NCBI GenBank assembly: GCA_964493655.1 | Contig: CAZBOY010000001.1 | Span: 1-58,772 of the forward strand | Length of the DNA: 58,772 bases | From: Candidatus Woesearchaeota archaeon | GTDB lineage: Archaea; Nanobdellota; Nanobdellia; Pacearchaeales; GW2011-AR1 | Direction of reading: 5' to 3' | Part shown: piece by piece, positions 868 through 16,015 of the stretch | How positions within the stretch are numbered: the first letter of the stretch is position 1 | How the letters are laid out: the number at the start of each line of letters is the position of its first letter | Translations under genes and position numbers: made by a program | Notes under the pieces: model-generated | Databases searched by the model: none | What the model was told of the DNA's origin: nothing | What the model saw: only the letters and a program-made list of their open reading frames with translations

Positions 868-1656
868 ATGAGGTGTGTAGCTATCTTGCTCTTAGCAGTT
901 GTGTTTTTATCTTCTTTTGTTTATGCTGGGGTTTATATTAATGAGGTTGAAGCGAATCCTGAAGGAAGCGAGACTAATGAATGGGTTGAACTTTATAATT
1001 CAGGAAATGTTGATATTGATTTAAGTGAATGGAAAATAATTGATGTCGGAGGAATTGAAGATGTTATTCCTTTTGGAACAATTATTCTAACAAAAGGTTT
1101 TTGGGTTTTTACAGAAGATATTTCTTCATTAAGTATAGATAACTCAAATGAACAAATAACCTTAAAAGATAAAACTGGAGAAATTATTGACATAACCCCC
1201 TTACTTAATGATGGGGGGGATGATAATAACACAAATCAACGAATCCCCGACGGAGTAGATAATTGGGAATTTAAAGAACAAACAAAAGGCAAATCAAACT
1301 CACCCCAAGAAAGCACAATAAGTTTTTCTTTATCTCCATTGATTTTTGGAAGTGTGAGCCAAGGGGGTTCGGTTATTAAAAATTCAGTAATAACATTACA
1401 TGAACCAAATAATGTTGATTTATCTTTTGAGATAAGTTTAGAAGAAGGAAGTATTTTTGAAAATCTTTTTTTTGATTTAAATGGCGACGATGTTTCTTCA
1501 GATGATGAACAATTAGATGAAACTCTTAATTATGATGTTGATGATTTAGAAGGAGAGTTTGAGATTAATTTGCCTGTGAGATTGAATATTCCTTTTGGCA
1601 GTGTTGCTGGAAAACATAATGGAAAAATTACATATACTGCAACTGAAAAAATATAA
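868..1656 (+). CDS. secreted lamin-tail-domain (LTD) protein with C-terminal beta-rich domain
   Basis: Signal peptide MRCVAILLLAVVFLSSFVYA. LTD signature INEVEANPEGSETNEWVELYNSG..IDLSEWKI. The C-terminal ISFSLSPLIFGSV... domain resembles the domains in 1758..2822 and 8694..9158. Confidence 0.8.
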   Translation: MRCVAILLLAVVFLSSFVYAGVYINEVEANPEGSETNEWVELYNSGNVDIDLSEWKIIDVGGIEDVIPFGTIILTKGFWVFTEDISSLSIDNSNEQITLKDKTGEIIDITPLLNDGGDDNNTNQRIPDGVDNWEFKEQTKGKSNSPQESTISFSLSPLIFGSVSQGGSVIKNSVITLHEPNNVDLSFEISLEEGSIFENLFFDLNGDDVSSDDEQLDETLNYDVDDLEGEFEINLPVRLNIPFGSVAGKHNGKITYTATEKI

Positions 1657-1696
1657 TTCATCAACTAAAAGTAGTAAGAAGAGTTTATAAAAAATA
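1657..1696 (+). promoter_or_regulatory. shared promoter-proximal motif, copy 2 (TTCATCAACTAAAAGTAGTAAGAAGAGTTTATAAAAAATA)
   Basis: Starts directly after the stop of 868..1656. A TATA-like box lies ~65 nt before ATG 1758, which has a GGGGGT Shine-Dalgarno-like site. Confidence 0.55.
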
Positions 1697-1757
1697 AAAC
1701 AATAAAAAAGTATTCCAATATTATACAATATTGAAAGGGGGTAAAAGGTAAAATAAA

Positions 1758-2822
1758 ATGAAAAAAATTTTAGTTTTTTTGGTTATGTTTGGGTTGATGT
1801 TTGGGTTGGTTGGGGCGGTTGATACAACTGCTATTACAACTTCTCGTTCTGCATCTGGTTTTGCTTTATCTCAGATTTCAGATGTCTGGGCAAATGGGGG
1901 TTCAAATTCTGCGAGATTATTTGCAGCATTAATAACTGGGCCAACAAATGAGGGAAGAGTTAGAATTGATTTTAATGAAGTGGTAACTTTGAATGATATT
2001 GAAAATATTTCCTGGATGCAATATGTAACAGAAGGTTATGCTTCTCATCTTGATTTATTTTTAGATATAGATTTTGATGGTGATGCCGACGAATCTTTAA
2101 ATTTTGAATATGATAAGGTTGCTCATCCTTCAGATCAATCAGTTGGAACTATGAATTATGCAAGAGATTCCTGGATAAATACTTTTGACGATAAAGGGAT
2201 TATTAATAATGGAGCACGTGCATGGTTAAATTCTGGAAGTCCAGGTTGTGGAAATAATGCCTATGATTGTGGAGGATTTATAGATGGATTGTTATCTGAA
2301 TGGAAAGCTGGAACTGCAGACGATTTAAGAATAAATGGTTCTACACGAGTTCTTGGATTTGAAATTGAAGTAGATGGTTGGATTGTAGAATCAGAAGCAT
2401 ATATAGATGATATTGTGATTAATGGAGTAGTTGTCGAAGCTTTTGAAGAATCACAAATTATAGAAGTAGATATTGATGAAGATATTTCTCTTTCAATAAG
2501 TCCTTCTACACTTGATTTTGGTGTTTTGAAAGCAGGAACAATTGATAATCCTGGTCAAAATATTATTTTTGATGCAACAGGAAGTAACACCGATGTTACT
2601 GTTGAAGTTCAAGGTGTAACTGGTTTTCCTTTTGAAACTGGATTAAAGTTTAATAGTCTTGTTCCAATAGGACAATCTGAAACTTTAAATTGTGTTGTTG
2701 TTGGTACTGCTTGTACATATAGTTCAGTAGAATGGACAACATCATTAACAATTCCAGCAGGAACTGTTTCAATGAATTATCAGGGAACTGTTGTTTACTT
2801 AGTTACTGGACCAACACCTTAA
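1758..2822 (+). CDS. secreted protein; C-terminal domain is paralogous to the 8694..9158 product (candidate surface-fibre or sheath subunit)
   Basis: Signal peptide MKKILVFLVMFGLMFGLVGA. The C-terminal ISLSISPSTLDFGVLKAGTIDNPGQNIIFDATGSN...GTVVYLVTG aligns with VVITPTNVEFGEVTAGSIDNLAKNGNIIIDPTGSN...GVVTYTITG. Confidence 0.75.
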   Translation: MKKILVFLVMFGLMFGLVGAVDTTAITTSRSASGFALSQISDVWANGGSNSARLFAALITGPTNEGRVRIDFNEVVTLNDIENISWMQYVTEGYASHLDLFLDIDFDGDADESLNFEYDKVAHPSDQSVGTMNYARDSWINTFDDKGIINNGARAWLNSGSPGCGNNAYDCGGFIDGLLSEWKAGTADDLRINGSTRVLGFEIEVDGWIVESEAYIDDIVINGVVVEAFEESQIIEVDIDEDISLSISPSTLDFGVLKAGTIDNPGQNIIFDATGSNTDVTVEVQGVTGFPFETGLKFNSLVPIGQSETLNCVVVGTACTYSSVEWTTSLTIPAGTVSMNYQGTVVYLVTGPTP

Positions 2823-2823
2823 A

Positions 2824-3516
2824 ATGAAAAACTTATTTATTATTTTTTTAATTATAATGATGGTGGGGCTAGCTGGGGCTAGTGGATTCTCACCATCAAG
2901 TTTAGTTTTTAATCTTGAACCAAATCAAGAAGAATGTCAGATGATAATTATAACTTCTGCTTCAGAAACAATTTCTGTTAATGACTATTGGGCTGAAAAT
3001 GAAAATGTGACTTGGAAAGTTAGTTTATTTAATTCAAGTGCAGGAGAACATAATTTGAATATTATTTATGATAACTCCTTGGGGGAAGGGGAGAGAGAAT
3101 TACAAGTTTGTCTTTCTGGTTCTGAATTAGGAGAGTATCATGGAGTTATAATAATGAAAGAAGAACAGCAGGGAAATTCTGTTGTTCAAATGGGGGTTTG
3201 GTTGAAGGTTGTTATTGAAGAAGTTGAGGAGATAGTTGAAGAACCTGTGGTTAATAATGAGGGTTCTGGAGGGAGGACTTCTCAAACTATATTTATCCCA
3301 AAGGAAAATACAACAGTTGAAACTAGTGGGGATTTAGAAAATCTTGATGAAGTAGAATCTGAAAGTTCGGATATTGAAAGTTCTGAAGAAGAATTTAAAT
3401 CTGGGATTACTGGGGCGGCGGTGGGTTTGTTAGATAGTAAAGGCTCTGTTGCAATTATTAGTTTAGTTGTTTTAGTTGTGATTGCAGTTGGAGTTTATGT
3501 AAGGAGAAATAAATGA
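2824..3516 (+). CDS. membrane-anchored beta-sandwich-like protein (signal peptide, Ig/PapD-like-looking domain, acidic linker, C-terminal TM)
   Basis: Starts 1 nt after the upstream stop. FSPSSLVFNLEPNQEECQMIIITS..., an E/S-rich linker, and a TM helix followed by RRNK. Close paralog of 9160..9684. Confidence 0.75.
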   Translation: MKNLFIIFLIIMMVGLAGASGFSPSSLVFNLEPNQEECQMIIITSASETISVNDYWAENENVTWKVSLFNSSAGEHNLNIIYDNSLGEGERELQVCLSGSELGEYHGVIIMKEEQQGNSVVQMGVWLKVVIEEVEEIVEEPVVNNEGSGGRTSQTIFIPKENTTVETSGDLENLDEVESESSDIESSEEEFKSGITGAAVGLLDSKGSVAIISLVVLVVIAVGVYVRRNK

Positions 3517-5903
3517 AGAAAATATTATTAATATCTTTTGGAATAATCCTAATTAGTTTGCTCTTTGCTTCAGCATTAGGAAAACATCAAAATGTTTATG
3601 TTTATGTTGCAAATGAAACACATGTTCAGAATGAAACATTTCCAAGCTGTGCATTTGCATCTGACAACCTAACACTAAGTTCAAATATAATCTGGGGTGA
3701 GTGCACTCAAGAAGTGTGGGCAAGTGTAAAAATTGGCTCGCAAGATGGGGAAAACTTCACAGCAACTATAGATGGGGGAAATAAATATTATGTAATAATC
3801 CCTCCTAATTTTTCAAATTCCGGAACAAATTTAATTTTTCAATTTTTTGCAAAAGATTGCTTCAACTTTACATATAATGGAAGCGAGAATTCTTTTTACA
3901 TAAGGAATAATACAAAATTAAATGTTAATCCTGAAAACCCAGATGGACTAAATAACTGGTATGTTAACGAACCGATATTTTCTTTAGAAAAAGATGAATC
4001 TGGAAATGATAGTTATTATCAATGGGATTCTACAGGACCTATTCCATATAGTTCTCCTTTTGGTTTAGAAGATATTCCAAACTCCCCACCAAAAGAATCT
4101 GCAGGAACCCTAGAATTAAATTGGTGGACAGATTTTGGTGAGTGTGGAAACGAAAGTAAACAAACTAAAGTTTTTTATGTTGATTTAATCAATCCTCAAA
4201 TTGATAATATTTTTCCCTTAGGAAATTTAATTAATAATCTTAATCCAGTTATCTCTGCTTATTTAGACGAAGTTTATGAAAGTAATTCAGGGATTAATAG
4301 AGACAGTGTTGTAATGAAACTTGATGGTGTGGAGGTTTCTGCAATTGTTGAAAAGCAAGGTTCTATTGATGCAGTCGTTAGTTATCAAACAGAAGAACTA
4401 TCCCAAGGAATTCATGGGGTAGAGATTTATGTTGAAGATAATGCCGGCAGAATAAATCAAACATCCTGGGAATTTTTTGTTATCTTAACCCCAATTTATG
4501 ACTTGCAGATTTTTTCACCAGTAGAAGATATCTATGATTCAAAAAGAATCCAGTTTAACATAAGTTCTGAAAAAGAATTAGATTTAATTGAATATATTGA
4601 TTGGTCTTCTAATAATCCGCGATGGAAAAGATTATGCTCTGATTGTGATGAATATGGATATGATAAAGCAAGAACTAAAACTTTTACAGACGGAGAGCAT
4701 AGTATAACAATTAGAACAATAGATTTGTTTGAGCAGATAAATGAAAAAAATATAAGTTTTTTTATTGATTCCAGAGCACCAAGAGTCTCAAAAACAGAAC
4801 CAAAGAGAGGATTTGCTTCTGGCTTGTTTGAAATTGAGTTTGAAGAAGATAATCCTAAAGAGATGTGGTTAAATTATGGAAATAGTTTTGGGGAGGGTTA
4901 TAGAAATGCTGAAGTTGATTTGAGTGAGTGTGTTATGGATAGAAGATATACTCAGTGTAATATCACAGTGAACTTATCAGATTATGATGGGCAAGAGATT
5001 GAGTATTGGTTTAATATTAGTGATAAGGCGGGGAATACAGATGAATCAAGGCATGAAGATTTAGATGTTGATGTTTCATTTCCAAAAATTAATAATCTTA
5101 CTTATGAAATAGATGGTAAATCTGTTTATTTTATTATTAATATTACTGAACCATATTTAGATGAGGTTAGTTACTTTTATCATGATGGCCAAGGAAGAGA
5201 AAGAAGATTATGTTCTAGATTAAAAGAGGGAATTTGCGAGAAAAAAGTATCTTTTGGAGAAGGTTATCATAATATCACAATTAATGTTATTGATGAAGTT
5301 GAGAATAAGGTTAGTGAGAATGTTTCATTATTTATTGATTCAAAACCCCCAAGAATCTCAAAAACAGAACCAAAGAGAAATCAAGTTACAAATGGCTCTG
5401 ACTTTTTGATAAAATATACAGAGGATAATCTAAAAGAAGTTTCAATTAGTTTTAATCCTGAAACTCCCTTAGAGCAATGTGATGAATCTGGAAGAAATGT
5501 GGAGTGTTTATTTGATTTAAATTTAAATGCTTATGACGGAGAGTGGGTTGAATACTGGTTTAATGTTTCTGATGAGGTTAATACTGTTGGTTCAAGAATC
5601 ACAAGAGTTTTTGTTGATACAACATCTCCTGAATTGAATTTGATTATGCCTTTGGGGGAAGTTTATGGTACAAGAAGAATTAATTTTATGATAGATGTAA
5701 GTGAAGAGGTTAAACTTGAATATAGGGATGAAAAAGATAGCAACCCAAGATGGAGAACTTTATGCACAAGATGTGAGGAATATGGAATCTCAAGAACAAA
5801 AACAAAATCCTTTAAAAAAGGAGAACATGAATTAATAATTCGGGCAAGTGATAAAGCAGGGAACACTGACGAAGAGATAATTAATTTTGAAGTTGACTAT
5901 TAG
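3513..5903 (+). CDS. large secreted multi-domain (tandem Ig-like) surface protein
   Basis: ATGA overlap with the upstream gene and a signal peptide. Internal duplications: IDSRAPRVSKTEPKR / IDSKPPRISKTEPKR, and NPRWKRLCSDCDEYG / NPRWRTLCTRCEEYG. Confidence 0.8.
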   Translation: MKKILLISFGIILISLLFASALGKHQNVYVYVANETHVQNETFPSCAFASDNLTLSSNIIWGECTQEVWASVKIGSQDGENFTATIDGGNKYYVIIPPNFSNSGTNLIFQFFAKDCFNFTYNGSENSFYIRNNTKLNVNPENPDGLNNWYVNEPIFSLEKDESGNDSYYQWDSTGPIPYSSPFGLEDIPNSPPKESAGTLELNWWTDFGECGNESKQTKVFYVDLINPQIDNIFPLGNLINNLNPVISAYLDEVYESNSGINRDSVVMKLDGVEVSAIVEKQGSIDAVVSYQTEELSQGIHGVEIYVEDNAGRINQTSWEFFVILTPIYDLQIFSPVEDIYDSKRIQFNISSEKELDLIEYIDWSSNNPRWKRLCSDCDEYGYDKARTKTFTDGEHSITIRTIDLFEQINEKNISFFIDSRAPRVSKTEPKRGFASGLFEIEFEEDNPKEMWLNYGNSFGEGYRNAEVDLSECVMDRRYTQCNITVNLSDYDGQEIEYWFNISDKAGNTDESRHEDLDVDVSFPKINNLTYEIDGKSVYFIINITEPYLDEVSYFYHDGQGRERRLCSRLKEGICEKKVSFGEGYHNITINVIDEVENKVSENVSLFIDSKPPRISKTEPKRNQVTNGSDFLIKYTEDNLKEVSISFNPETPLEQCDESGRNVECLFDLNLNAYDGEWVEYWFNVSDEVNTVGSRITRVFVDTTSPELNLIMPLGEVYGTRRINFMIDVSEEVKLEYRDEKDSNPRWRTLCTRCEEYGISRTKTKSFKKGEHELIIRASDKAGNTDEEIINFEVDY

Positions 5904-5963
5904 AAATTAGGAAGATTGAAAGGACAGAAAACCTTAAAAAGCATTGTTTCATAATTGGTACAT

Positions 5964-6521
5964 ATGGTTCAAAATAAAAACATAGAGTTAGAGATAATTT
6001 TAAATCTTATAAAAGATAAATCTCATTTAAGAGAAATCTCCAGGTCTATTGGAAAACCCCCTTCAACAGTTTTGAGAAATCTTAATGAACTTGTAAAAGA
6101 AAATATTATTGATTATCGGCAAGAAGGTAAAAATAAAATCTTTTTTATAAAAAATAATTTAAAATCTAAAAATTATGTTTATTCTGCAGAAATTTATAAG
6201 CTGAACAAATTGCTGAAAAAAAATCCTGAATTAGCTATAATCTTCGAGGACATAAAAAATTCTTTTTCAAAAGGCATGATAATTTTATTCGGCAGTTATG
6301 CCAAGGGAAACCCAAAAACAGATAGTGATATTGATGTATATTTAGAAACAGAGGATAATAAGATAAAAAATAAAATAAAAGAATTGAACCAGAAACTAAG
6401 TGTAAAAATTGGAGAGTTTGATTCAACTTCATTATTAATAAAAGAAATAATTAAGAATCATGTTATTGTGAGGGGGGTAGAGGAATATTATGAACAAAAT
6501 AATTTTTTTAAAGAAACTTAA
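5964..6521 (+). CDS. MNT-type nucleotidyltransferase antitoxin with N-terminal wHTH
   Basis: LFGSYAKGNPKTDSDIDVYL (GS..x..DxD minimal nucleotidyltransferase motif). HTH-like LREISRSIGKPPSTVLRNLNELV. ATG at 5964 within the listed ORF. Confidence 0.8.
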   Translation: MVQNKNIELEIILNLIKDKSHLREISRSIGKPPSTVLRNLNELVKENIIDYRQEGKNKIFFIKNNLKSKNYVYSAEIYKLNKLLKKNPELAIIFEDIKNSFSKGMIILFGSYAKGNPKTDSDIDVYLETEDNKIKNKIKELNQKLSVKIGEFDSTSLLIKEIIKNHVIVRGVEEYYEQNNFFKET

Positions 6522-6984
6522 ATATGCAGGAAAATTAGAACTTGTTGAACCTTCTGAAGAAATGAAATTGTCTTATTTGACCAAAGCTGAAAATTGTCTC
6601 AAATCTTCTAAGATTCTATTTCAAAATGAGCTTTATGAAAACTCCACATCAGAGGCATATTATTGCATTTATAATTCCTTACTTGCTTTGTTATTTAAAA
6701 TAGGAATTAAATCTGAAAACCATTCTGCATCTATTTTCTTATTTGACAAACTATTTGATAATAAAGAATTGGTAAAAATAGTATTATGGGCAAAAAAAGA
6801 AAGAATAGATAAACAATATTATGTTGAAACTCAACAAATTCTCAAGGCAACAAAAGAATCTTGCAATGAAATGATCCTAAAGGCAGAAGATTTTCTGTTA
6901 AGATTAAGAGTTATTGTGAGTGAACTAAACAATGAAAAAATAATAGGGATTAGAAAACTTTTTGAGGAATTATTAGGGAATTAA
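6490..6984 (+). CDS. HEPN-domain protein, partner of the MNT gene
   Basis: Overlaps the MNT gene by 32 nt. All-helical ~160 aa protein with a HEPN-like layout (AENCLKSSKILF...ENHSASIF...KKERIDKQYY). I did not see a classical Rx4-6H motif. Confidence 0.6.
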   Translation: MNKIIFLKKLKYAGKLELVEPSEEMKLSYLTKAENCLKSSKILFQNELYENSTSEAYYCIYNSLLALLFKIGIKSENHSASIFLFDKLFDNKELVKIVLWAKKERIDKQYYVETQQILKATKESCNEMILKAEDFLLRLRVIVSELNNEKIIGIRKLFEELLGN

Positions 6985-6989
6985 ATTTT

Positions 6990-7028
6990 TTCACCAAACA
7001 AAAGTAGTAAGAAGTATTTATAAAAAAA
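6990..7028 (+). promoter_or_regulatory. shared promoter-proximal motif, copy 3 (TTCACCAAACAAAAGTAGTAAGAAGTATTTATAAAAAAA)
   Basis: Same AAAAGTAGTAAGAAG block plus a TATA-like box ~25-30 nt before ATG 7050. Confidence 0.6.
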
Positions 7029-7049
7029 GGATGTGTAGTAAAAAAGAAA

Positions 7050-8114
7050 ATGAAAAAGGTGATGGTTGTTTTCTTGCTTGGAATATTTTTAATCAGCTTG
7101 GTTTCTGCAACAAATGTGGCTTATGTTTTGCGAAATCCTGAAAGAGCTGATGCTGGATTTTTGAATGCTTTTAGTGAACTTGGGTTGAATGTTGATTTGA
7201 TTAATGATGGGGATGTTAGGGTTACGGATTTTTCTGGTTATGATTTGATTTTTGTTGGCGACGAGAGATTGAGAAATGCTAAGTATCTTCCGATTGATTC
7301 TGTTTCAAATGTGATTGTAAATGGATATTATGGAAAATTATTTGGCTTGCTTGAAAAAGGTAGAATGTCAAAACTTGCTGCAAATCATCCTCTTAAAATT
7401 AAACAAAATGGCGACGTTGTAAAAGCATATACCACTGCAGAATATCGTGGGAGGAGAATAAATCTTCCTTATTATTTTATCCCAGAGAAATATAAAAAAG
7501 AAAACTCGCAATCAATTGCGACAACTTTTGTAGGATATAAAAAAGAGCTAGGGGATGTTATTTCTTATCTTGATGGGGATGTAAGAAAATGTTTTTTTGG
7601 AATAACTAAAACAAAATATTGGACAGAGGATTCCCGAGAATTGTTTAAAGATTGTGTTGGTTTTGCTATTAGTGGGGAGAATTCTGGAGATGACGACGAT
7701 GAAATAGAAGATGGTATTCATGATGTAGAAATTGTAGAAGATTATGTAAATAGTGTGAATGGGATAAGGATTAAAAATGATGAAACCGGAGAATATTTGT
7801 TAGATGAGATTTCTTCTTTAATGTGTGGAGAAAAATATAAGGTTGATTTTAAGACTTTGAATGTTGGTGATTATACTGAAGATGTTTTAATTTCTGGGTC
7901 TGTTAATGGGTTTGAATGGGGTAGGACTAAAGAAGGGCTTGAATCTGGAAAATCAACAACAACTGGTTCAAAAACAATTACAATAAATGAAGATTTTCCA
8001 ATTGGAACTTATACAATTGAGATTCAAGCATTAATTGAAGAAGATGTAACACCTGAAAATAATATTCGTTCTCGAGATGTTAATGTTGTTTGTCTTGCGA
8101 AAATGGATCAATAA
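7050..8114 (+). CDS. secreted protein: conserved N-terminal alpha/beta-like domain plus C-terminal CARDB-like domain
   Basis: Signal peptide. The N-terminal ~200 aa are paralogous to the N-terminus of 9726..13223 (VAYVLRNP...DLIFVGDERLRN...SKLAANHPL). The C-terminal HDVEIVEDY...PENNIRSRDVNVVC is CARDB-like. Confidence 0.75.
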   Translation: MKKVMVVFLLGIFLISLVSATNVAYVLRNPERADAGFLNAFSELGLNVDLINDGDVRVTDFSGYDLIFVGDERLRNAKYLPIDSVSNVIVNGYYGKLFGLLEKGRMSKLAANHPLKIKQNGDVVKAYTTAEYRGRRINLPYYFIPEKYKKENSQSIATTFVGYKKELGDVISYLDGDVRKCFFGITKTKYWTEDSRELFKDCVGFAISGENSGDDDDEIEDGIHDVEIVEDYVNSVNGIRIKNDETGEYLLDEISSLMCGEKYKVDFKTLNVGDYTEDVLISGSVNGFEWGRTKEGLESGKSTTTGSKTITINEDFPIGTYTIEIQALIEEDVTPENNIRSRDVNVVCLAKMDQ

Positions 8115-8145
8115 GGATTTTATTAATCTTCAAAAGATTTCTGCT

Positions 8146-8250
8146 TAGGAGCTGACTAATTTAATCTTTATAGTGCCTGATGAAATTTTTCCATATCTTA
8201 AATAGGGTTGGGAAAAATTTCCGCAGAAGCTTCCTAAAGCATTATCACTA
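8146..8250 (+). repeat. nested-palindrome hairpin element, copy 1
   Basis: Stem 8182-8192 GAAATTTTTCC pairs with 8211-8221 GGAAAAATTTC; 18-nt loop starts ATATCTTA. Right flank is CGCAGAAGCTTCCTAAAGCATTATCAC. Confidence 0.75.
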
Positions 8251-8320
8251 AAACTACATCGAGTATTTTGCCAATTCATAAACCCTAATTTTTATTAATA
8301 ACTAACTTATCTTCAACTGG

Positions 8321-8425
8321 TTAGCTGACTGTTTTTTGTTGGTGGTTGTTGCGGAAATTTACCCTTATCTTATTTTTTGTTGGGGGTAAATTTCACCAGA
8401 GGTTTTGAAGAGCACTAAGCTTAAT
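8321..8425 (+). repeat. nested-palindrome hairpin element, copy 2 (in tandem with copy 1)
   Basis: Stem 8354-8364 GAAATTTACCC pairs with 8384-8394 GGGTAAATTTC; loop starts TTATCTTA. Flanks are TTAGCTGACTG...TTGGTGG and TTTTGAAGAGCACTAAGC. Confidence 0.75.
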
Positions 8426-8693
8426 ACTAACACAAAAAGATTTTTTAAATAATAAATCTCATAGAAAACTTTCCTTTAAACTTAGTCAGAAGGATTATTT
8501 ATTTATTCAGTTTTTGGTCTTTTGGAGGGATGTCTTTGGGAGAATCATTAACTTGTGCTGTGGGTTAATTGGGTTAATTCATCGAAATTTAGTAGTGCTA
8601 TAAATTTATATATGTAACTATTTCTAAATTAAAACAGAAAATGGAACTGACAAAGGAATTTATGATAAATAGTATTGAAAGGAGGTATAATAA

Positions 8694-9158
8694 ATGAGAA
8701 AAATTTTAGTTTTATTGATGACTCTTAGTATTTTAACTTTGATGTTTTCTTTATCTAATGTTATTGCCTTAAGCCAAGGTTTAAGTGTTACAATTAAGGA
8801 GGATTTAAATGTTGTAATCACTCCTACAAATGTTGAATTTGGAGAAGTAACTGCAGGAAGTATAGATAATCTTGCTAAGAACGGAAACATTATTATTGAC
8901 CCAACTGGAAGTAATGTTAAAACTATTTATGTTTATGTTTCTGTTGATGAAATAGAACCTTTTAAAACCGGGCTTAAGTTCGATGGAAGATTAGCAGATG
9001 GATTAAATTATGATTTGATATGCATAGAAAATCCATGGGAACACATTCCAAAAATTATTAAACCAACATTGGATGTTCCTTTAGGAGCATATGCAGGTAC
9101 AATATCTGGGGTAGTTACTTATACAATTACTGGAAGTTCGCCACCAGTTCATACATAA
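8694..9158 (+). CDS. small secreted beta-rich protein, paralog of the C-terminal domain of 1758..2822 (candidate fibre subunit)
   Basis: Strong SD (GGAGGT) 8 nt upstream, signal peptide, and the shared FGxVxAGSIDN...DPTGSN...GxVTYTITG motifs. Confidence 0.8.
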   Translation: MRKILVLLMTLSILTLMFSLSNVIALSQGLSVTIKEDLNVVITPTNVEFGEVTAGSIDNLAKNGNIIIDPTGSNVKTIYVYVSVDEIEPFKTGLKFDGRLADGLNYDLICIENPWEHIPKIIKPTLDVPLGAYAGTISGVVTYTITGSSPPVHT

Positions 9159-9159
9159 A

Positions 9160-9684
9160 ATGAAAACATTATTTTTTATTTTTTTAATTATAATGATGGT
9201 GGGGCTAGCTGGGGCTAGTGGATTCTCACCATCAAGTTTGGTTTTTAATCTTGGACCTAATCAAGAAGAATGCCAAATAATAACAATCACCTCTAATTCA
9301 CTGACGATAAATGTGGATGATAAATGGGCTACTAATAGTGATGTTGAATGGAAAGTAAGTTTGTTTAATTCAAGTGCAGAAGAACATAATCTAAATATTA
9401 ATTATGATAACTCCTTGGGGGAAGAGGAGAGAGAATTACAAGTTTGTCTTTCTGGTTCTGAATTAGGAGAATATCATGGAGTTATAATAATGAAAGAAGA
9501 ACAGCAGGGAAATTCTGTTGTGCAAATGGGGGTTTGGTTGAAGGTTGTGGTTGCAGAAAATATTGATAAAAATATTGATAAAACAATTATCTTGGGGGTG
9601 CTCTTTATTTTAATTATGATATCTTTTTTGTTTTTGATTAAAAAGAAAAGTAAGGGTGTAAGTTATTTCATCAAAACCCAGTAG
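9160..9684 (+). CDS. membrane-anchored beta-sandwich-like protein, paralog of 2824..3516
   Basis: Starts 1 nt after the upstream stop. A 62-bp run is identical to 2842-2903, and ~200 bp (9349-9548) is near-identical to 3013-3212. The C-terminal TM anchor differs. Confidence 0.8.
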   Translation: MKTLFFIFLIIMMVGLAGASGFSPSSLVFNLGPNQEECQIITITSNSLTINVDDKWATNSDVEWKVSLFNSSAEEHNLNINYDNSLGEEERELQVCLSGSELGEYHGVIIMKEEQQGNSVVQMGVWLKVVVAENIDKNIDKTIILGVLFILIMISFLFLIKKKSKGVSYFIKTQ

Positions 9685-9705
9685 TAAGACATGTTTATAT
9701 ATAGA
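9667..9705 (+). promoter_or_regulatory. shared promoter-proximal motif, copy 4, more diverged (TTCATCAAAACCCAGTAGTAAGACATGTTTATATATAGA)
   Basis: Overlaps the stop codon of 9160..9684. A GTAGTAAGA core plus a TATA-like box lie ~25 nt before ATG 9726. Confidence 0.45.
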
Positions 9706-9725
9706 AAACTTCTAAAAAAACCAGT

Positions 9726-12700
9726 ATGAAAAAGCAATTGGTATTTTTAATTTTAGGTTTGATTTTGATTAGTTCTGTTTCTGCTGCAGATGTTGCTTAT
9801 ATTTACAGAAGCTCTTCAATGGTTGACGACAATGTCTTAGATGTTTTTTCTGGTTTGCATTTAAGTGTTGATTTAATCAATGAAGATACTCTTCCAAAAG
9901 ATTTTTCAAATTATAAATTTCTTTTTATTGGAGATGAGAGTTTCAGAAATGAAGAAAACATTCCGGTGGATAAATATCCTTCAATTATTACAAGTTATTC
10001 TTTTGGAAAAGAGTTTGGTTTAACTGATGCTGATGGGGTTTCAAAACTTGCGGCTAATTCTCCTCTCCAAGTAAAAAAAGATAATCAGGCAATTCAGGTT
10101 TATACTCAAGCAAAATATAGTTTAGGAGGTATTGCAATTCCTTATTATTTTTTAGATGATCATAATAAAGCTCCTCAGATGCAATCTGTTGCAAGAACTT
10201 ATACTGGGATTAATCAAGAAAATGATTTCGGGGATGTAATTAGTTATGCTGGTCCAGGTGCAGATTTACTTAATGGAAATGAACTTGATAGTAAGCTGTG
10301 CTTTTTTGGAATAATTGAAAGTGACTACTGGACACCTGCTGCTCGTGAGTTGTTTGAAGATTGTGCTGGTTTTGTTGGAATAACTTGTGAGGGGGATAAT
10401 GATTGTCCTGATGATGAAGAGCTAGACAAATTCTGTAGAAATGATGATGTTTATGTTGAAGTTGAAAAATATGATTGTAAAAACGACGGGACTTTTAATT
10501 CTGAGTGTGTTTCTAATACAGATGATGAACTAGAAAAGAATTGTGATTACTTTTGTTATGATGCTGAATGTGTAAGGTGTAATTTTGATTACAATTGTGA
10601 CGACGGAAATATCCGGACTGAAGATAGTTGTGTAAATCCTAAGACAACACAGAGTTATTGTGAATATGGGGATATAACTTGTTTTAATGATAATGAATGC
10701 GACGATGAAAATAATTATACTAAAGATACTTGTTTAAGCCCTGGAACTGTGAACAGTGAATGTAAGCATGAAAACATAATTTGTTTTGAAAATGAAGATT
10801 GCAATGATGAAAATGATTATACAAAAGACCTATGTAGAAATCCCGGGACAGTTCAATCTCAATGTGAATATCAAGATATAGGTTGTCTTAATGATTTTGA
10901 TTGTGAAGATAATAATGAAAGAACTTTTGATGAGTGTGTAAACCCTGGAACTTCAATCAGCGAATGTAGAAATACTGAAATGAATTGTTTGAATGATGCA
11001 GATTGTGGGATTACCGGATTTGTTGGAGAAGAATTCTGCAACCATAATAATGTTTGGAAAACAAAACAAATTGCTCTTTGTCATAATCCTGCGACAATCT
11101 TGAGCTCTTGTGCTATTGCTGTTTATCCTGAATTAATCCAAGATTGCGATGATGGAGATATTTATACTATTGATAGTTGTGTAGAAGATGGAATTGCTCA
11201 TTGCGAGCATAAATTTTTAGAATGTTTAATAGATTCTGATTGCGACGAAGATTATTATACTAACTGGGAATTTTCTTGTGAACAGGACGATGTTATAAAA
11301 ACAAGAGAGCTTCATGATTTTTTCTGTTGTTTTGGTGAATGTTCTTTTTGTCAAGATCCTTGTGAAATAAATCAGAATACTTGTAAGGAATCAATAACTC
11401 CTGAAACAGAGTTTGTTGCTAATTGTGAATATGGATGTGATGATGGTGAATGTTTGCAAGGATGTTATGAAGATTCTGATTGTGGAGAGGTTCATTATGG
11501 GGAAAGATATTGTGAAGGAAGCAGTTCTATTTTAGAAGAATTCACACCAACTTGTACTGAAGGTGAATGTGGAGAAGAATTAAATCTTATTACTAATATT
11601 TGTTTGTATGGATGTGATGATGGAAAATGTAATGAGCCAGAATGTTCTGTTGCTGAAGATTGCGGGGATGTTGTTGAATCTCTTGAATGTGTTGGAGATG
11701 ATTTAGTTAAAACAATTACAACACCTATTTGTATTGAAGGTCTTTGTGGTGAAGAAACTTCTAATGAAACAACTTATTGTGAATATGGATGTGCAAATGA
11801 CGAATGTATAGAGCCTCCAATTGAATGTAATGCAAATCTAGATTGTGGATTAAATCAATTTTTAAATCAGGAATTTTGCCAGAACAATGATGTGTTTGAT
11901 AATTTTATAGTTTATAGTTGTGTAAATCCTGGACAAGTAAATAGTTATTGTGAAGAAGCGATTAATCCTCAATTAATTGAGGACTGCGGTGATGATTCTA
12001 ATGGTGAGTGGGGAAATTATTGTAAGGGTGATGATGTTTGGAGAACAAGAGATAATATAGATAAGGGATGTGTTTCTGGAGAATGCTTTTCAGAAACAGT
12101 TGTTGAAGATGAATTTCTTGTTGCTTGTGAATATGGATGTGATAATGGAAGTTGTATTGAAGGAACTCATGATGTTGCTTTAGTTGATTTTACTAATTCT
12201 GTTAATGGAATCGGTATTCAAGATTTAGGAGGAAATTATATTTTAGGAAATACTGCAACATTGAATTGCAATCAAGAATATAAAATATGGATTGATGTTG
12301 AGAACAAAGGAGATTTTGGAGAAGCAGTTGAATTTGAAAGTTTTGTTGATGGCTTGTTATTTAATCATCTTCAGGTTGATAATCTTCTTCCACAAGAGAA
12401 TAAATTAAAATATAGAACTGTTAATTTTTCATTAGAAGAAGGGGCTTATACAATCTCTGTTGAAGCTATTATAAACTCTGATGATAATTTAGAGAATAAT
12501 CTTGTTCAGAGAAATATAGAAATTGTTTGTGAAGAACCACCAATTGTATGTGAAAGAGATTCTGACTGTGGAACAAACCAATGGATTGGGGATGCACTTT
12601 GTTCAAATAATGATGTTAACCAAAACTTTAAAGTTTTCACATGTTTAAATCCTGGAACAATTAATTCTCAATGTGTTGATCAGGTTGATTTGATTTTAAA

Positions 12701-13223
12701 AAATGATTGCGGTGATGATTCTAATGGTGAATGGGAAAACTATTGTAAAGCAGATGATGTTTGGAGAACAAGAGATAATATAGATAAAGGATGTGTATCT
12801 GGAGATTGTTATTCTGAGGAATCTACTCAAGATGAATTTCTTGTTGCTTGTGAATATGGATGTGCAAATGACGAATGTATAGAGCCTCCAATTGAATGTA
12901 ATGCAAATCTAGATTGTGGATTAAATCAATTTTTAAATCAGGAATTTTGCCAGAACAATGATGTGTTTGATAATTTTATAGTTTATAGTTGTGTAAATCC
13001 TGGACAAGTAAATAGTTATTGTGAAGAAGCGATTAATCCTGAACTTATTGAGGATTGTGGTGATGATTCATTTGGAAATACTTATTGTATTGGAAAGGAT
13101 ATTTATCAAAATCAAACAGTAGTTAGTTGTGCTGATGCAAATTGTTTTAGTGAAATAAATCCTGTATTAGTTGGAAGTTGTGACTACAGATGTGCAAATG
13201 GGGGTTGCATAGCTTGTGTTTAA
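9726..13223 (+). CDS. giant secreted Cys-rich modular surface protein (1165 aa) with an internal CARDB-like domain
   Basis: Signal peptide and an N-domain paralogous to 7050..8114. Tandem 34-aa four-Cys modules (C-x5-C-x10-C-x9-C, e.g. CFNDNECDDENNYTKDTCLSPGTVNSECKHENII). Larger duplicated Cys-rich units. CARDB-like HDVALVDF...ENNLVQRNIEIVC. Confidence 0.85.
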   Translation: MKKQLVFLILGLILISSVSAADVAYIYRSSSMVDDNVLDVFSGLHLSVDLINEDTLPKDFSNYKFLFIGDESFRNEENIPVDKYPSIITSYSFGKEFGLTDADGVSKLAANSPLQVKKDNQAIQVYTQAKYSLGGIAIPYYFLDDHNKAPQMQSVARTYTGINQENDFGDVISYAGPGADLLNGNELDSKLCFFGIIESDYWTPAARELFEDCAGFVGITCEGDNDCPDDEELDKFCRNDDVYVEVEKYDCKNDGTFNSECVSNTDDELEKNCDYFCYDAECVRCNFDYNCDDGNIRTEDSCVNPKTTQSYCEYGDITCFNDNECDDENNYTKDTCLSPGTVNSECKHENIICFENEDCNDENDYTKDLCRNPGTVQSQCEYQDIGCLNDFDCEDNNERTFDECVNPGTSISECRNTEMNCLNDADCGITGFVGEEFCNHNNVWKTKQIALCHNPATILSSCAIAVYPELIQDCDDGDIYTIDSCVEDGIAHCEHKFLECLIDSDCDEDYYTNWEFSCEQDDVIKTRELHDFFCCFGECSFCQDPCEINQNTCKESITPETEFVANCEYGCDDGECLQGCYEDSDCGEVHYGERYCEGSSSILEEFTPTCTEGECGEELNLITNICLYGCDDGKCNEPECSVAEDCGDVVESLECVGDDLVKTITTPICIEGLCGEETSNETTYCEYGCANDECIEPPIECNANLDCGLNQFLNQEFCQNNDVFDNFIVYSCVNPGQVNSYCEEAINPQLIEDCGDDSNGEWGNYCKGDDVWRTRDNIDKGCVSGECFSETVVEDEFLVACEYGCDNGSCIEGTHDVALVDFTNSVNGIGIQDLGGNYILGNTATLNCNQEYKIWIDVENKGDFGEAVEFESFVDGLLFNHLQVDNLLPQENKLKYRTVNFSLEEGAYTISVEAIINSDDNLENNLVQRNIEIVCEEPPIVCERDSDCGTNQWIGDALCSNNDVNQNFKVFTCLNPGTINSQCVDQVDLILKNDCGDDSNGEWENYCKADDVWRTRDNIDKGCVSGDCYSEESTQDEFLVACEYGCANDECIEPPIECNANLDCGLNQFLNQEFCQNNDVFDNFIVYSCVNPGQVNSYCEEAINPELIEDCGDDSFGNTYCIGKDIYQNQTVVSCADANCFSEINPVLVGSCDYRCANGGCIACV
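11778..11969 (+). repeat. perfect 192-bp intragenic direct repeat, copy A
   Basis: Identical base for base to 12849-13040 when read by eye. Encodes CEYGCANDECIEPPIECNANLDCGLNQFLNQEFCQNNDVFDNFIVYSCVNPGQVNSYCEEAINP. Confidence 0.9.
12849..13040 (+). repeat. perfect 192-bp intragenic direct repeat, copy B
   Basis: Lies 1071 bp downstream of copy A. The neighbouring duplicated units are clearly more diverged (roughly one difference per 8-10 nt by eye). Confidence 0.9.
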
Positions 13224-13224
13224 G

Positions 13225-14301
13225 ATGGTAAATGATTATTCAAGAAGAGCATTTGTTAGTAGCATATTAGGGGCTGTATGTGGGGGGTGTGCAAAAATCG
13301 CCGGAGATTATATGAAAGATCCAGAAGCCACTCCAGGTATTTTAAGAGAGGGTATTGCAAGACCTTATAATGCAGTAAGTGTTGAAGTTCCTACAAATTC
13401 TGAAGATGCTAGAAATAAAATGAATGAAGGTTTAGGGAGAATTCCACAAAATCTTGTTAGACTTGTTGATAGTGTTACAAGTATAGTGGGAATTCGAGGA
13501 GGAAGATATTGCGGTTTAGTTTCAACAACTGAAAGATTTAATCCACCAAAAGGAAAGGAATTTGAATATAGAGTAAGAGCAATTGTAACTCAACCAGGAA
13601 GGGGTATTGCAGATGTTTTAGAATGTGCTTCTAATTTAATTGGAGATATTGTTAAACCAGGTGTACAAGCTGTGAATTTGGGTATGGTTCTTCCCCTATC
13701 TTCAAATAATGTTAATGTTGATGCATGGACAGATGTGGTTAAAGGGCCATTGAGAGCAGGATTATATTTAGGACAGGAAATGGCTGGAGTTGGATTGCCT
13801 GCTTCTTGGAAATCTAGTGTTTTTGGTATGAAAAAATGGGCAGGATTTGATTTAAGTGAAGAAGATGAAAGAACTCATCAAGAATTACAAATGAAATTTA
13901 AAAGATTATATGAAGGAGAAATAAAACCAGATATTGCAAGGGTTATTGTAAATGCAATACCTGCTGTTGGAAATAGTTTAGATAGTTTATTTTGGAGAAC
14001 AAATGTAAGGGGTAATAGTGGGACATACCAAATTGTTGTTAATTTCATGGAAAATGGAATACCTGCTCCAGTGCATGTTGGAGATGAATCATTTGCAGAT
14101 GATAAAAAATGGTATGGTAAGGATAAAGATCCTACAAAAGCTCCTGGAGTTTTTATAAATAATGAATTCAGACCGGCAAAATCTGTTTTATTAGAATTAA
14201 TAAAATTAGCTCCATCTTTTGCTGGTTCTGGTGGTGGGGGTGGTGGTGGCGCAAGTCCTGCTAGTGGTGGTGGTCGTTCAGGAGGTTCTGGAGGAAGATG
14301 A
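13225..14301 (+). CDS. protein of unknown function with a twin-arginine-like N-terminus and a Gly-rich C-terminal tail
   Basis: ATG lies 1 nt after the stop of the giant gene. N-terminus MVNDYSRRAFVSSILGAVCGGCA; C-terminus SGGGGGGGASPASGGGRSGGSGGR. Confidence 0.7.
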   Translation: MVNDYSRRAFVSSILGAVCGGCAKIAGDYMKDPEATPGILREGIARPYNAVSVEVPTNSEDARNKMNEGLGRIPQNLVRLVDSVTSIVGIRGGRYCGLVSTTERFNPPKGKEFEYRVRAIVTQPGRGIADVLECASNLIGDIVKPGVQAVNLGMVLPLSSNNVNVDAWTDVVKGPLRAGLYLGQEMAGVGLPASWKSSVFGMKKWAGFDLSEEDERTHQELQMKFKRLYEGEIKPDIARVIVNAIPAVGNSLDSLFWRTNVRGNSGTYQIVVNFMENGIPAPVHVGDESFADDKKWYGKDKDPTKAPGVFINNEFRPAKSVLLELIKLAPSFAGSGGGGGGGASPASGGGRSGGSGGR

Positions 14302-15257
14302 AAAAAACAATAACAATTTTATTGCTGGTATTATTTTTAAGTTTAAACTTAGTAATTGCCGATAGATATGAGGATAATAATATTAAATATGGAAAAATTG
14401 ATTCTGGCGGAAACTTAATTGAAACTTCAACTCCTATCAATGGTGCGAGTGTTTTAGGATTTGTTTGCAGTTCTGCAGATTGTGGAAGTGTGTCAGGAAG
14501 ATTATGGTCAAATATACTGAATACAAATACTGATTTTATTCAATTGGTTTATCCATATGAATTATTATCTAATTTTGGTTATGGGGTTTACTTTTTTAAA
14601 GATGGATATATTCCTTATGAAGTTGATGTAGATTGGTGGGGAACAAATTCCGGAGATCCTGTAGGACCTTATGATAATTATTTATCTAAAAAAGAAATGT
14701 GCGTTTCGGATATAAGTAATTTAGGAGTTGCTCTTGATAATCATAATGTAGATGTGAATCTTAAAGTTAAATCTCCTATTGATAATTCAGGTCCTTTAGA
14801 TTATATTCCTTCTGAACTTAAAGAACATTATAGTGCAGATGTAGGAGTTGAACTTGATGTTTTGAAAGATGATTCTTCATATTATGAAAAAACAGAATCC
14901 GTAGATATTCCATTTTCTGAAAAAAAGAATGTTGGTTTTTCTTTTGCTGCTGAACCTGGAGATTATGAATTAGTTGTTTCTACTTTTATTGGTGATGACA
15001 AATGTTTAAGTTATGAACCTGATGAACAAATTAAGAAGTTTACAATTTGCTATGTAAATAATGATTGTGGTTCTTCAGCATGTATTGAAAACGGAAACTA
15101 TTGCGGAGTTGACGGAAACATCTATCATGATTATGCAGGTTTAAAATGTGAAAATCCTGGAACACTAAATGGGGTATGTTCGCAAATTTCTGAAAGCAGA
15201 AAAATAGGGACTTGTTTATATGGTTGTGGAAGTGGAAAATGTTTGGGTAAGGGGTAG
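14298..15257 (+). CDS. secreted protein with a C-terminal Cys-rich module like those of the giant protein
   Basis: ATGA overlap with the upstream gene and a signal peptide. C-terminus CYVNNDCGSSACIENGNYCGVDGNIYHDYAGLKCENPGTLNGVCS...CLYGCGSGKC. Confidence 0.75.
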   Translation: MKKTITILLLVLFLSLNLVIADRYEDNNIKYGKIDSGGNLIETSTPINGASVLGFVCSSADCGSVSGRLWSNILNTNTDFIQLVYPYELLSNFGYGVYFFKDGYIPYEVDVDWWGTNSGDPVGPYDNYLSKKEMCVSDISNLGVALDNHNVDVNLKVKSPIDNSGPLDYIPSELKEHYSADVGVELDVLKDDSSYYEKTESVDIPFSEKKNVGFSFAAEPGDYELVVSTFIGDDKCLSYEPDEQIKKFTICYVNNDCGSSACIENGNYCGVDGNIYHDYAGLKCENPGTLNGVCSQISESRKIGTCLYGCGSGKCLGKG

Positions 15258-15316
15258 GTTTTAAGTTTAGTTAAAAATGTTGAAGCCTAAAATTGGGAAA
15301 AAGAGTTCTGTGAAAA

Positions 15317-15985
15317 ATGGTAAATGTTTTTGAACAACACAAGGCAGAAAACGAAAAAGGCAAGCATGTAAGATTAAGTTATAGAAATAGGGATGTTCTT
15401 ATTTTTGAACATTGTAGAGATAATCCAGTGGTTTCTGAATGGGTTTTAAACTATAATGTTTTTATTCCTTCTTCACAACTCCTTTTATTTAATTTCGGAC
15501 ATGCTTGGGATTTTTTAGAAAAATTAAGAAAAAGAAATGCAAGAAATGTAAATGATGCTATTGAAGAAGCTGGATTAGGAAATACAAGACATGGATTATT
15601 GCAACAATGTTCTAATATTCAGGCTTGGATATCTATGATTAGTTCTGGACCAGATAGATTGCCTTTAGATTGTCAAACTGCTGAAAGATATATTTTAGAG
15701 AGAGAATATCAGGCAACACAGATTACTCGTGGACAGGGTTCTGTTTTGATTGAAGATTATTCTGAACATCCAAATCCTTTTGCAATTACGTTTCCCTATA
15801 ATCTAGGAGCCTCGCTTTTTCTTTCGCAAATAAGGATTAATGCTTTTGATGCAGATGTTGCTGGAGAATTATCCAATTTGGTTTCTAATGTTGGTGCTGT
15901 TAAAATTGAAGAAGGAAACTTAAAAGAATTAGAAAAATCTTTAGAACAAGTTTTATCTGAATTTACAGTTTCGATTAATAGATAA
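15317..15985 (+). CDS. hypothetical cytoplasmic protein
   Basis: 222-aa ORF in an AT-rich background. No signal peptide or motif recognised. Confidence 0.6.
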   Translation: MVNVFEQHKAENEKGKHVRLSYRNRDVLIFEHCRDNPVVSEWVLNYNVFIPSSQLLLFNFGHAWDFLEKLRKRNARNVNDAIEEAGLGNTRHGLLQQCSNIQAWISMISSGPDRLPLDCQTAERYILEREYQATQITRGQGSVLIEDYSEHPNPFAITFPYNLGASLFLSQIRINAFDADVAGELSNLVSNVGAVKIEEGNLKELEKSLEQVLSEFTVSINR

Positions 15986-16015
15986 TTTTAAATTCTTAAG
16001 TTTATTATTCAAACT

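Follow-up and report, generated by a model that had tools for sequence, protein, structure and literature searches.

The window analysed here is a stretch of 58,772 nucleotides (nt), contig CAZBOY010000001.1 of the Candidatus Woesearchaeota archaeon assembly GCA_964493655.1. Near its beginning lie two copies of a gene pair, SUB-MID, in which SUB encodes a secreted protein and MID a membrane-anchored protein with an immunoglobulin (Ig)-like domain, together with genes for larger secreted proteins. Comparison of these genes indicates that the SUB-MID pair is the unit shared by the two copies, and supports recent gene conversion between the two MID genes. The genes of the locus are as follows.

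868-1656, + strand: SUB0, secreted, with a lamin-tail domain (LTD; Pfam, 4.4e-14) and a C-terminal SUB domain (hidden Markov model (HMM), 3e-23, residues 148-261)
1758-2822, + strand: SUB1, secreted two-domain protein of 354 residues, with an N-terminal domain of ~205 residues and a C-terminal SUB domain
2824-3516, + strand: MID1, signal peptide, Ig domain (residues 21-134), acidic/Gly-Ser stalk, GITGAAVG, transmembrane helix and RRNK tail (MID HMM, 2e-85)
3513-5903, + strand: BIG1, secreted multi-Ig protein of 796 residues with repeated Cys-pair domains (Pfam Big_13, 9e-13)
7050-8114, + strand: P7050, secreted protein of 354 residues, paralogous to the N-terminal and CARDB-like regions of the giant protein
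8694-9158, + strand: SUB2, stand-alone secreted SUB protein of 154 residues, with ~14 residues ahead of the first Ig strand
9160-9684, + strand: MID2, signal peptide, Ig domain, short linker and transmembrane helix, lacking the stalk and the GITG motif (MID HMM, 2e-75)
9726-13223, + strand: giant Cys-rich secreted protein of 1165 residues, P7050 family; separate transcription unit, not homologous to BIG1

An earlier note on this DNA gave correct coordinates for the open reading frames (ORFs) it described, and overlooked SUB0, the third SUB-domain gene. It had proposed two paralogous three-gene modules. This description held for the SUB-MID pair but not for the third genes, 3513-5903 and 9726-13223, which gave a best E value of 0.5 against each other. 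The domain said to be shared by the first genes was recovered as a C-terminal region of ~125 residues (35% identity, E = 1e-15), and SUB1 and SUB2 are paralogous in this domain only. The tight coupling described for both modules was seen between SUB1 and MID1 (1-nt spacer, 2822 to 2824), between MID1 and BIG1 (ATGA overlap, 3513-3516) and between SUB2 and MID2 (1-nt spacer, 9158 to 9160), but not between MID2 and the giant gene. The 41-nt spacer at this last position carries its own promoter-like motif (9680-9704), and the giant gene was therefore counted as a transcription unit of its own. From sequence comparison, the paralogous unit is a two-gene core, SUB-MID, rather than a three-gene module. 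The window thus contains this conserved core twice, as ancient paralogous copies, and module 2 is a second SUB-MID pair upstream of the separately transcribed giant protein.

The conservation of this arrangement was examined in a synteny set of 23 distinct MID-bearing loci drawn from related genomes and metagenomes. SUB lay directly upstream of MID in 21 of the 23 loci, and the two genes mostly overlapped or were separated by 1-4 nt. MID was followed by a BIG1-family gene in ~14 of the 23, and P7050-family genes were found nearby in six. Individual loci showed the orders SUB-MID-SUB-MID-BIG1-P7050 (L029), SUB150-SUB365-MID-BIG1 (L021) and MID-SUB-MID-BIG1 (L027). Because the order SUB-MID-BIG1 recurs across MID loci, module 1 of the window represents the ancestral three-gene form. 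Among 400 genomes sampled across the phylum, 7 carried the MID Ig domain, all belonging to the GTDB family of the window, and not all sampled members of this family had it. Since the domain is patchy and confined to one GTDB family in this sample, the system is accessory, rather than part of the core envelope.

MID1 and MID2 are composed of blocks with very different degrees of similarity, as had been noted by eye. The longest exact repeat extends over 64 nt (2840-2903 = 9176-9239), and contains the 62 nt reported previously. The second block (3013-3212 versus 9349-9548) was 191/200 identical in an ungapped comparison, or 95.5%, in agreement with the by-eye count. The divergence reported between the blocks and at the anchors was also confirmed, with 68% identity over 2904-3012 and no similarity past 3225. 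Synonymous (dS) and nonsynonymous (dN) divergence between MID1 and MID2, calculated by the Nei-Gojobori method, divided the signal-peptide and Ig-domain part into three tracts.

2820-2913 (= 9156-9249), + strand: putative converted tract A, residues 1-30, dS 0.08, dN 0.036; holds the exact 64-nt run 2840-2903
2914-3012 (= 9250-9348), + strand: putative old, unconverted core B, residues 31-63, dS 1.49, dN 0.33; 64% amino acid identity
3013-3225 (= 9349-9561), + strand: putative converted tract C, residues 64-134, dS 0.19, dN 0.042; holds a 50-nt exact run, 3136-3185

Third-position differences were found in 17 of the 33 codons of block B, compared with 8 of 101 elsewhere (Fisher p = 3e-7). The concentration of 34 of the 52 MID1-MID2 differences within one 99-nt block was equalled in 0 of 100,000 permutations, and the 64-nt length of the longest identical run had a permutation P of 0.003. 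In block C, MID1 and MID2 share 94% amino acid identity, and neither exceeds 72% with any other homologue. In block B the two are 64% identical, no closer than either is to homologues of other organisms (64-70%), and a foreign homologue (70%) comes nearer to MID2 than MID1 does (64%). A maximum-likelihood tree built from the Ig domain joins MID1 and MID2 as sisters on short branches (support 97/92). The same tree does not place the MID paralogues within three other genomes (L029; L027; L025 and L030) as sisters. The neighbouring SUB1 and SUB2 are only 35% identical, each being closer to foreign sequences than to the other, as expected of old paralogues.

Low-dS tracts are thus bounded by old segments, and the MID paralogues are sisters in this genome only. 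The heterogeneity of dS, the block-wise identities, the sister position and the old SUB neighbours together support recent non-reciprocal recombination (gene conversion) between MID1 and MID2 over the signal-peptide and Ig-domain part, with the 99-nt core B left unconverted, or re-acquired later. The earlier note had suggested ongoing gene conversion together with diversification; the conversion is borne out by the dS values of the three blocks, but a dN/dS of ~0.2 in block B speaks against positive selection. In the predicted structure of MID, block B corresponds to strands B-C of the sandwich. As a speculation, this segment may distinguish cognate SUBs, which would explain its escape from erasure by conversion.

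Could the mosaic have arisen without conversion? A single recent duplication with uniform divergence, the alternative named in the earlier note, is excluded by the block-wise heterogeneity of dS. A variant in which one recent MID duplication was followed by rapid diversifying selection on residues 31-63 would agree with the sister position of MID1 and MID2, and with the divergent block lying where the family alignment varies most. However, block B has reached saturation at its silent sites (dS ~1.5, versus 0.08-0.19 in the flanks), and neither the low dN/dS nor the closeness of MID2 to a foreign homologue in this block is accounted for by such a scenario. The adjoining SUBs are only 35% identical, the pairing of SUB with MID is ancestral, and we regard the duplication scenario as highly improbable. 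Still harder to sustain is the view that these are Ig-like secreted proteins unrelated in function whose adjacency is incidental, or that the mosaic is an assembly artefact. The proteins lack family annotations and the genome is a metagenome-assembled genome (MAG), and one hybrid contig shows that assemblers can join both copies. This contig, L042 (ERZ27248922:k141_39640), runs through P7050, SUB2 and the MID2 Ig domain and then continues with the MID1 stalk and BIG1. The switch point lies inside the 50-nt exact run 9472-9521 = 3136-3185, and the MID1 stalk and BIG1 side is without mismatch. A lookup of the hybrid MID protein returned no second contig, L042 being its sole carrier. The junction is what could be expected of an unequal crossover (tandem duplication) or an excised 6.3-kb circle, and equally of an assembler chimera. 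Against incidental adjacency stands the SUB-MID synteny in 21 of the 23 MID loci, from distinct genomes. The window sequence across both modules was recovered at 99.98-100% identity in five independent assemblies from other samples, and the mosaic is therefore not an assembly error.

A word-indexed homologue search with SUB2 found only SUB2 itself. A SUB profile search (HMMER) of 1.8 billion representatives gave 734 clusters at 50% identity (E ≤ 1e-3), which include some long ASH-repeat proteins outside the SUB family. The commonest form of SUB is a stand-alone secreted protein of ~150 residues. In other members, SUB is located C-terminal to a ~205-residue domain like that of SUB1. In P0157, P0177, P0137 and P0147, from other metagenomes, it follows a subtilase (Peptidase_S8, 5e-53), lamin-tail domains or a segment that looked dockerin/EF-hand-like by eye. 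Because SUB sits behind such diverse head domains, it acts like a C-terminal module of general use for attachment or assembly. The N-terminal domain of SUB1, of ~205 residues, is conserved in 17 homologues at 40-55% identity; its fold is unassigned and possibly lectin-like, and SUB1 had no Pfam, NCBIfam or PDB sequence match. In SUB, the signal-peptide cleavage site is followed by ~14 residues with alternating hydrophobics before the first strand begins, an extension that MID lacks. In natural tandem SUB-SUB proteins, the two domains are linked by the N-terminal extension of the second copy.

AlphaFold2 models were obtained for the SUB2 and MID2 monomers, and compared with the PDB using Foldseek. 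The SUB2 model had a predicted local distance difference test score (pLDDT) of 93.7, and its best match was FimG (E 2.5e-4, template modelling (TM)-score 0.48-0.56), followed by matches that include CS20, CfaB, Csu, CanA (rank 11), SafA, PapA, CupE and Caf1. The matches to the incomplete-Ig pilins FimG, CfaB, Csu, SafA, PapA and Caf1 thus have E values of at least 2.5e-4 and TM-scores of about 0.5. No fimbrial Pfam family (PF00419 and relatives) was detected in SUB1, SUB2 or 73 SUB members, and PDB sequence and profile searches were empty. The Foldseek comparison proposed in the earlier note placed donor-strand pilins on top, but not TasA and AbpA, which were named there as candidates. Membership in the TasA/camelysin (PF12389) or AbpA families was rejected: none of the 73 SUBs had a Peptidase_M73 match, and both TasA and AbpA fell outside the Foldseek top 50.

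The SUB profile matches repeat proteins of the multi-ASH/PapD-like/HYDIN type (P0057, P0062, P0089), in which the N-terminal half of SUB (L.FG.V..G ... N.G) aligns with the repeats; this ties SUB distantly to that superfamily. Contact with Pfam was limited to one of the 73 members (HYDIN_VesB, 0.005), and the placement of SUB and MID in the ASH/PapD-like/MSP Ig superfamily is at the level of fold and profile only. Neither SUB nor MID has a Pfam or NCBIfam model, or a PDB or literature record, and PDB sequence searches with SUB2, MID2, the SUB profile, a two-domain SUB profile, BIG1 and P7050 returned nothing meaningful.

The MID family is conserved far more strongly than SUB. At least 46 homologues were found outside the host genome (47-67% identity), all unnamed and without Pfam domains. 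Their alignment contains an invariant mature N-terminus GFSP, two Cys, Trp residues, the motif GEYHG and a last strand with Q..W.K, followed toward the C-terminus by a low-complexity Gly/Ser/acidic stalk, a (G)ITG motif, a transmembrane helix and a basic tail. The MID2 model (pLDDT 86) shows a signal helix, a seven-strand Ig sandwich and a transmembrane helix, in accord with the anchored β-sandwich described for the middle proteins in the earlier note. Its Foldseek matches are the ASH domains of Hydin and CEP192, MSP, the chaperones CsuC and FimC, and many generic Ig domains (E 1e-4 to 2e-3). The match to domain 1 of CsuC and FimC is weak (E about 1e-3), and MID consists of one Ig domain and a transmembrane helix without a Pfam match, not the two Ig domains of the PapD-like chaperones (PF00345/PF02753). 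The conserved Q..W.K of the last strand, with its alternating hydrophobic residues, is at most suggestive of a chaperone-type donor strand. An hhalign comparison of the SUB and MID profiles aligned the signal peptides alone, and the domains are not detectably homologous.

The C-terminus of MID1, GITGAAVG-transmembrane helix-RRNK, was found by a regular-expression scan, and resembles the TGAFTGAFGG-transmembrane C-terminus of a PACE-CTERM protein of the same genome. A 959-residue protein (23331-26210, tail at 26050-26210) and MID1 (3400-3516) both end in GITG-x-transmembrane helix-basic tail, and the stalk-ITG-transmembrane module of MID matches the C-termini of many proteins of 500-1900 residues in other families of the class. 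The curated sorting-signal models of NCBIfam did not match MID1. Judged by these C-termini, the module looks like a general, uncurated sorting signal, plausibly for pacearchaeosortase.

The host genome comprises 713 kb in 43 contigs (85% complete, ~31% GC), the window being its contig C1. It encodes a pacearchaeosortase on contig C3 (L037:719-2046), which scored 176 bits against NCBIfam NF033505 (cut-off 80); the Pfam exosortase model gave only a sub-threshold match, so that the identification came from NCBIfam. The gene is adjoined by that of the PACE-CTERM protein, a putative S-layer protein. MID homologues sit in MAGs labelled Pacearchaeota, Woesearchaeota and Nanoarchaeota. The pacearchaeosortase, its PACE-CTERM neighbour and these labels indicate that the host is a Pacearchaeota-type DPANN archaeon.

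BIG1 is built of two alternating types of Cys-containing domains, and its relatives elsewhere are shorter (300-515 residues) and directly follow MID. A co-evolving N-terminal donor motif common to SUB and BIG1 was considered and rejected. The two N-termini show a loose Q-x-V-x-V pattern, similarity within operons did not differ significantly from that across operons (P = 0.086), and the scores of real and shuffled data were almost the same. The giant protein (9726-13223) and P7050 (7050-8114) are paralogues (43% identity over the N-terminal 235 residues, E = 7e-57), and neither belongs to a Pfam or NCBIfam family. The giant gene also contains near-identical internal repeats, 11777-11998 versus 12848-13069 (98% over 222 nt), with further repeats at 11883-12160, 12606-12883 and 12954-13231. 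Recent duplication or conversion has also taken place within this gene of the island.

Comparison with known surface systems shows resemblances in kind. The Pam pili of candidate phyla radiation (CPR) bacteria consist of the pilins PamA/B, the membrane-anchored chaperones PamC/PamD and the anchor PamR (bioRxiv 10.64898/2026.03.03.709456 = PMC13278184). Their pilins have an N-terminal sandwich domain, a linker donor strand and a truncated Ig C-terminal domain, the chaperones are PapD-like with a transmembrane anchor, and there is no usher (PMC13278184). SUB-MID shares with Pam an ultra-small episymbiont host without an outer membrane, Sec-secreted Ig-like subunits, a C-terminal transmembrane helix (on the PapD-like partners as on MID), the lack of an usher and the grouping of the parts in one operon. 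The architecture of SUB1 and MID is analogous to the published description of the Pam proteins, the comparison being by description only. Unlike SUB-MID, which is archaeal, Pam is reported to be exclusive to CPR bacteria; PamC/D have two β domains whereas MID has one, and SUB-MID is known here from genes and predicted folds alone.

The chaperone-usher pili (Fim, Pap, CFA/I, Csu, Caf1) provide the best structural matches of SUB, and CsuC and FimC are among those of MID. The two-domain SUB1, with a head and a pilin-like domain, parallels FimH/PapG, and SUB has an N-terminal extension. However, no Pfam Fimbrial, PapD or usher match was obtained, MID is single-domain and membrane-anchored, SUB and MID form 1:1 pairs whereas many pilins are served by each chaperone, and the host has no outer membrane, which archaea lack. 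No usher was found in Pfam/NCBIfam scans of ten of the ORFs at 868-15257, which did not include an usher-specific search.

Strand-donation filaments are also known from archaea, including the threads of Saci_0406/0405 (PMC9715654) and Tafi, with TafE/A, the tip TafC and the anchor TafF (PMC12337348), as well as cannulae (CanA) and bundling pili (AbpA). They resemble the present system in their Sec-secreted (Tat in halophiles) β-sandwich subunits with an N-terminal donor strand and in assembly without a chaperone or usher; CanA is 11th among the fold matches of SUB, and Tafi encodes its tip and membrane-anchor proteins in the same locus. In contrast to SUB-MID, their subunits are not each translationally coupled to a conserved, anchored partner of the ASH type, and these filaments occur in Thermoproteota, Halobacteria and Thermococci, not in DPANN. 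No sequence similarity was detected, and TafE and Saci_0406, like AbpA and TasA, were outside the Foldseek top 50. As for the ASH/PapD-like/MSP superfamily (PF15780, PF14874, PF22544), members are matched by the SUB profile and the MID model, but neither protein reaches a Pfam threshold alone, the single HYDIN_VesB contact apart. ASH domains are complete Ig folds, usually found in long intracellular or surface repeat arrays. SUB-MID thus resembles the known donor-strand and anchored surface assemblies in kind, and fails the sequence tests for chaperone-usher, PapD and TasA/AbpA proteins.

The SUB and MID pair probably builds an adhesive surface structure. Guided by the predicted folds, we tentatively propose, with somewhat less than even confidence, an accessory surface adhesion or display complex in which MID would tether or chaperone SUB-domain proteins by β-strand complementation. 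All members of the locus pair carry secretion signals, and MID alone carries a membrane anchor; SUB-domain proteins, having no anchor of their own, would be held at the cell surface by MID. MID would serve as a basal anchor and/or a membrane-tethered chaperone, MID1 presenting its Ig domain on a long stalk that ends in the GITG-transmembrane-basic signal, and the distal adhesins would be BIG1 or SUBs headed by a lectin-like, lamin-tail or protease domain. Binding between SUB and MID would be by β-strand complementation, with physical binding, strand donation and any polymerisation all inferred. This appears to be the most economical mode because of the pilin-like folds, the N-terminal extension, the tandem fusions and the FimH-like head-plus-SUB architecture. 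The earlier note had raised a logic of subunit, chaperone-like protein and tip or adhesin as one possibility; the closeness of SUB to pilins and of MID to ASH/PapD/MSP folds, and the preserved SUB-MID(-BIG1) order, make this suggestive, not decisive. Several observations weigh against the proposed complementation. The Foldseek E values of SUB (1e-4 to 1e-3) and TM-scores of ~0.5 are marginal, Ig-like folds cross-match easily, and MSP and integrin calf domains are interspersed in the SUB2 list. The N-terminal extension is also internal in two-domain SUBs, and could be a plain extra edge strand. MID has a single Ig domain where PapD-type chaperones have two, the within-operon test of SUB and BIG1 N-termini was null, and a long major-pilin fibre is harder to reconcile with the tight 1:1 coupling of SUB and MID than is a heterodimer.

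A bolder version of the proposal, possible although we are inclined to doubt it, is a usher-free donor-strand surface fibre or stalk of Pacearchaeota/Woesearchaeota, with MID as chaperone/anchor, SUBs as pilins, and headed SUBs and BIG1 as interchangeable adhesins. Conversion within the genome would then maintain compatibility of the anchors, with a short specificity segment remaining divergent, and the system would be convergent with the CPR Pam pili. The main rival is an anchor-ligand heterodimer, in which SUB is a docking module and MID its anchor in a non-polymerising 1:1 display of the cohesin-dockerin or lectin type, without strand exchange or a fibre, and BIG1 is an independent, co-expressed adhesin. 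Such a display would suit the translational coupling, in which every SUB is matched by a MID of its own, tandem arrays included, the fusion of SUB to diverse payloads including subtilase, the combination of a highly conserved MID head with a variable SUB, and the relation of the SUB profile to complete ASH-type Ig domains. It sits less well with the dominance of donor-strand pilins over generic Ig domains in the SUB Foldseek list, and with the conserved N-terminal extension and its alternating hydrophobic residues; moreover, payload-free stand-alone SUBs are the commonest, and a pure docking module would display nothing. We judge it unlikely. It is also conceivable, but very unlikely, that these proteins are core envelope components (an S-layer and its anchor) instead of an accessory adhesion system. 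An anchored stalk protein and a large secreted multi-Ig protein recall SlaB/SlaA, and MID1 has a C-terminus similar to the sortase signal of the S-layer candidate, but that candidate is a separate protein, encoded beside pacearchaeosortase elsewhere in the genome, and the MID Ig domain occurs in only 7 of the 400 sampled genomes, in one family.

The surroundings of the adhesion candidate form an island, 868-16717, with a series of genes on one strand whose products are Sec-type secreted. The promoter-like motif AGTAGTAAGA-N4-TTTATA(A/T)A precedes four surface-protein genes, those starting at 868, 1758, 7050 and 9726. A pattern search located copies at 820-844, 1666-1690 and 6999-7023; the fourth, at 9680-9704, overlaps the MID2 stop codon, and a degenerate copy lies at ~8590-8614. 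The distance from the end of the motif to the ATG is 21-26 nt for three genes and 67 nt for gene 1758, and the chance expectation for such copies is none. Between the two modules, at 5955-6984, lies an overlapping pair of nucleotidyltransferase (NTP_transf_2/Polbeta) and HEPN genes, with the Pfam matches read from identical contigs; similar toxin-antitoxin pairs (HepT/MNT, PIN/MazE, HicAB) interrupt the homologous loci L017-L019. Further downstream, 13216-14301 encodes a 361-residue protein without any family match, whose start overlaps the end of the giant gene and which has the Gly-rich tail GSGGGGGGGASPASGGGRSGGSGGR. A secreted or anchored protein (16016-16717) contains the motif DGDT..L....IRL.GI.TPE, seen by eye only, which we take to be typical of staphylococcal-type thermonucleases.

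The locus defines two uncharacterised families in a conserved gene order. To our knowledge, little is known of how DPANN archaea attach to their hosts or to surfaces, and annotation is lacking for the majority of their surface proteins. The SUB-MID locus offers a concrete candidate for a DPANN attachment apparatus, and its predicted folds point to a pilus-like assembly. If strand donation proved true, chaperone- or anchor-assisted donor-strand assembly would extend to ultra-small archaea, in parallel to the Pam pili of CPR bacteria. The MID mosaic provides a clean, small case of concerted evolution in a reduced genome of 0.7 Mb, and may mark the part of MID that determines partner specificity.

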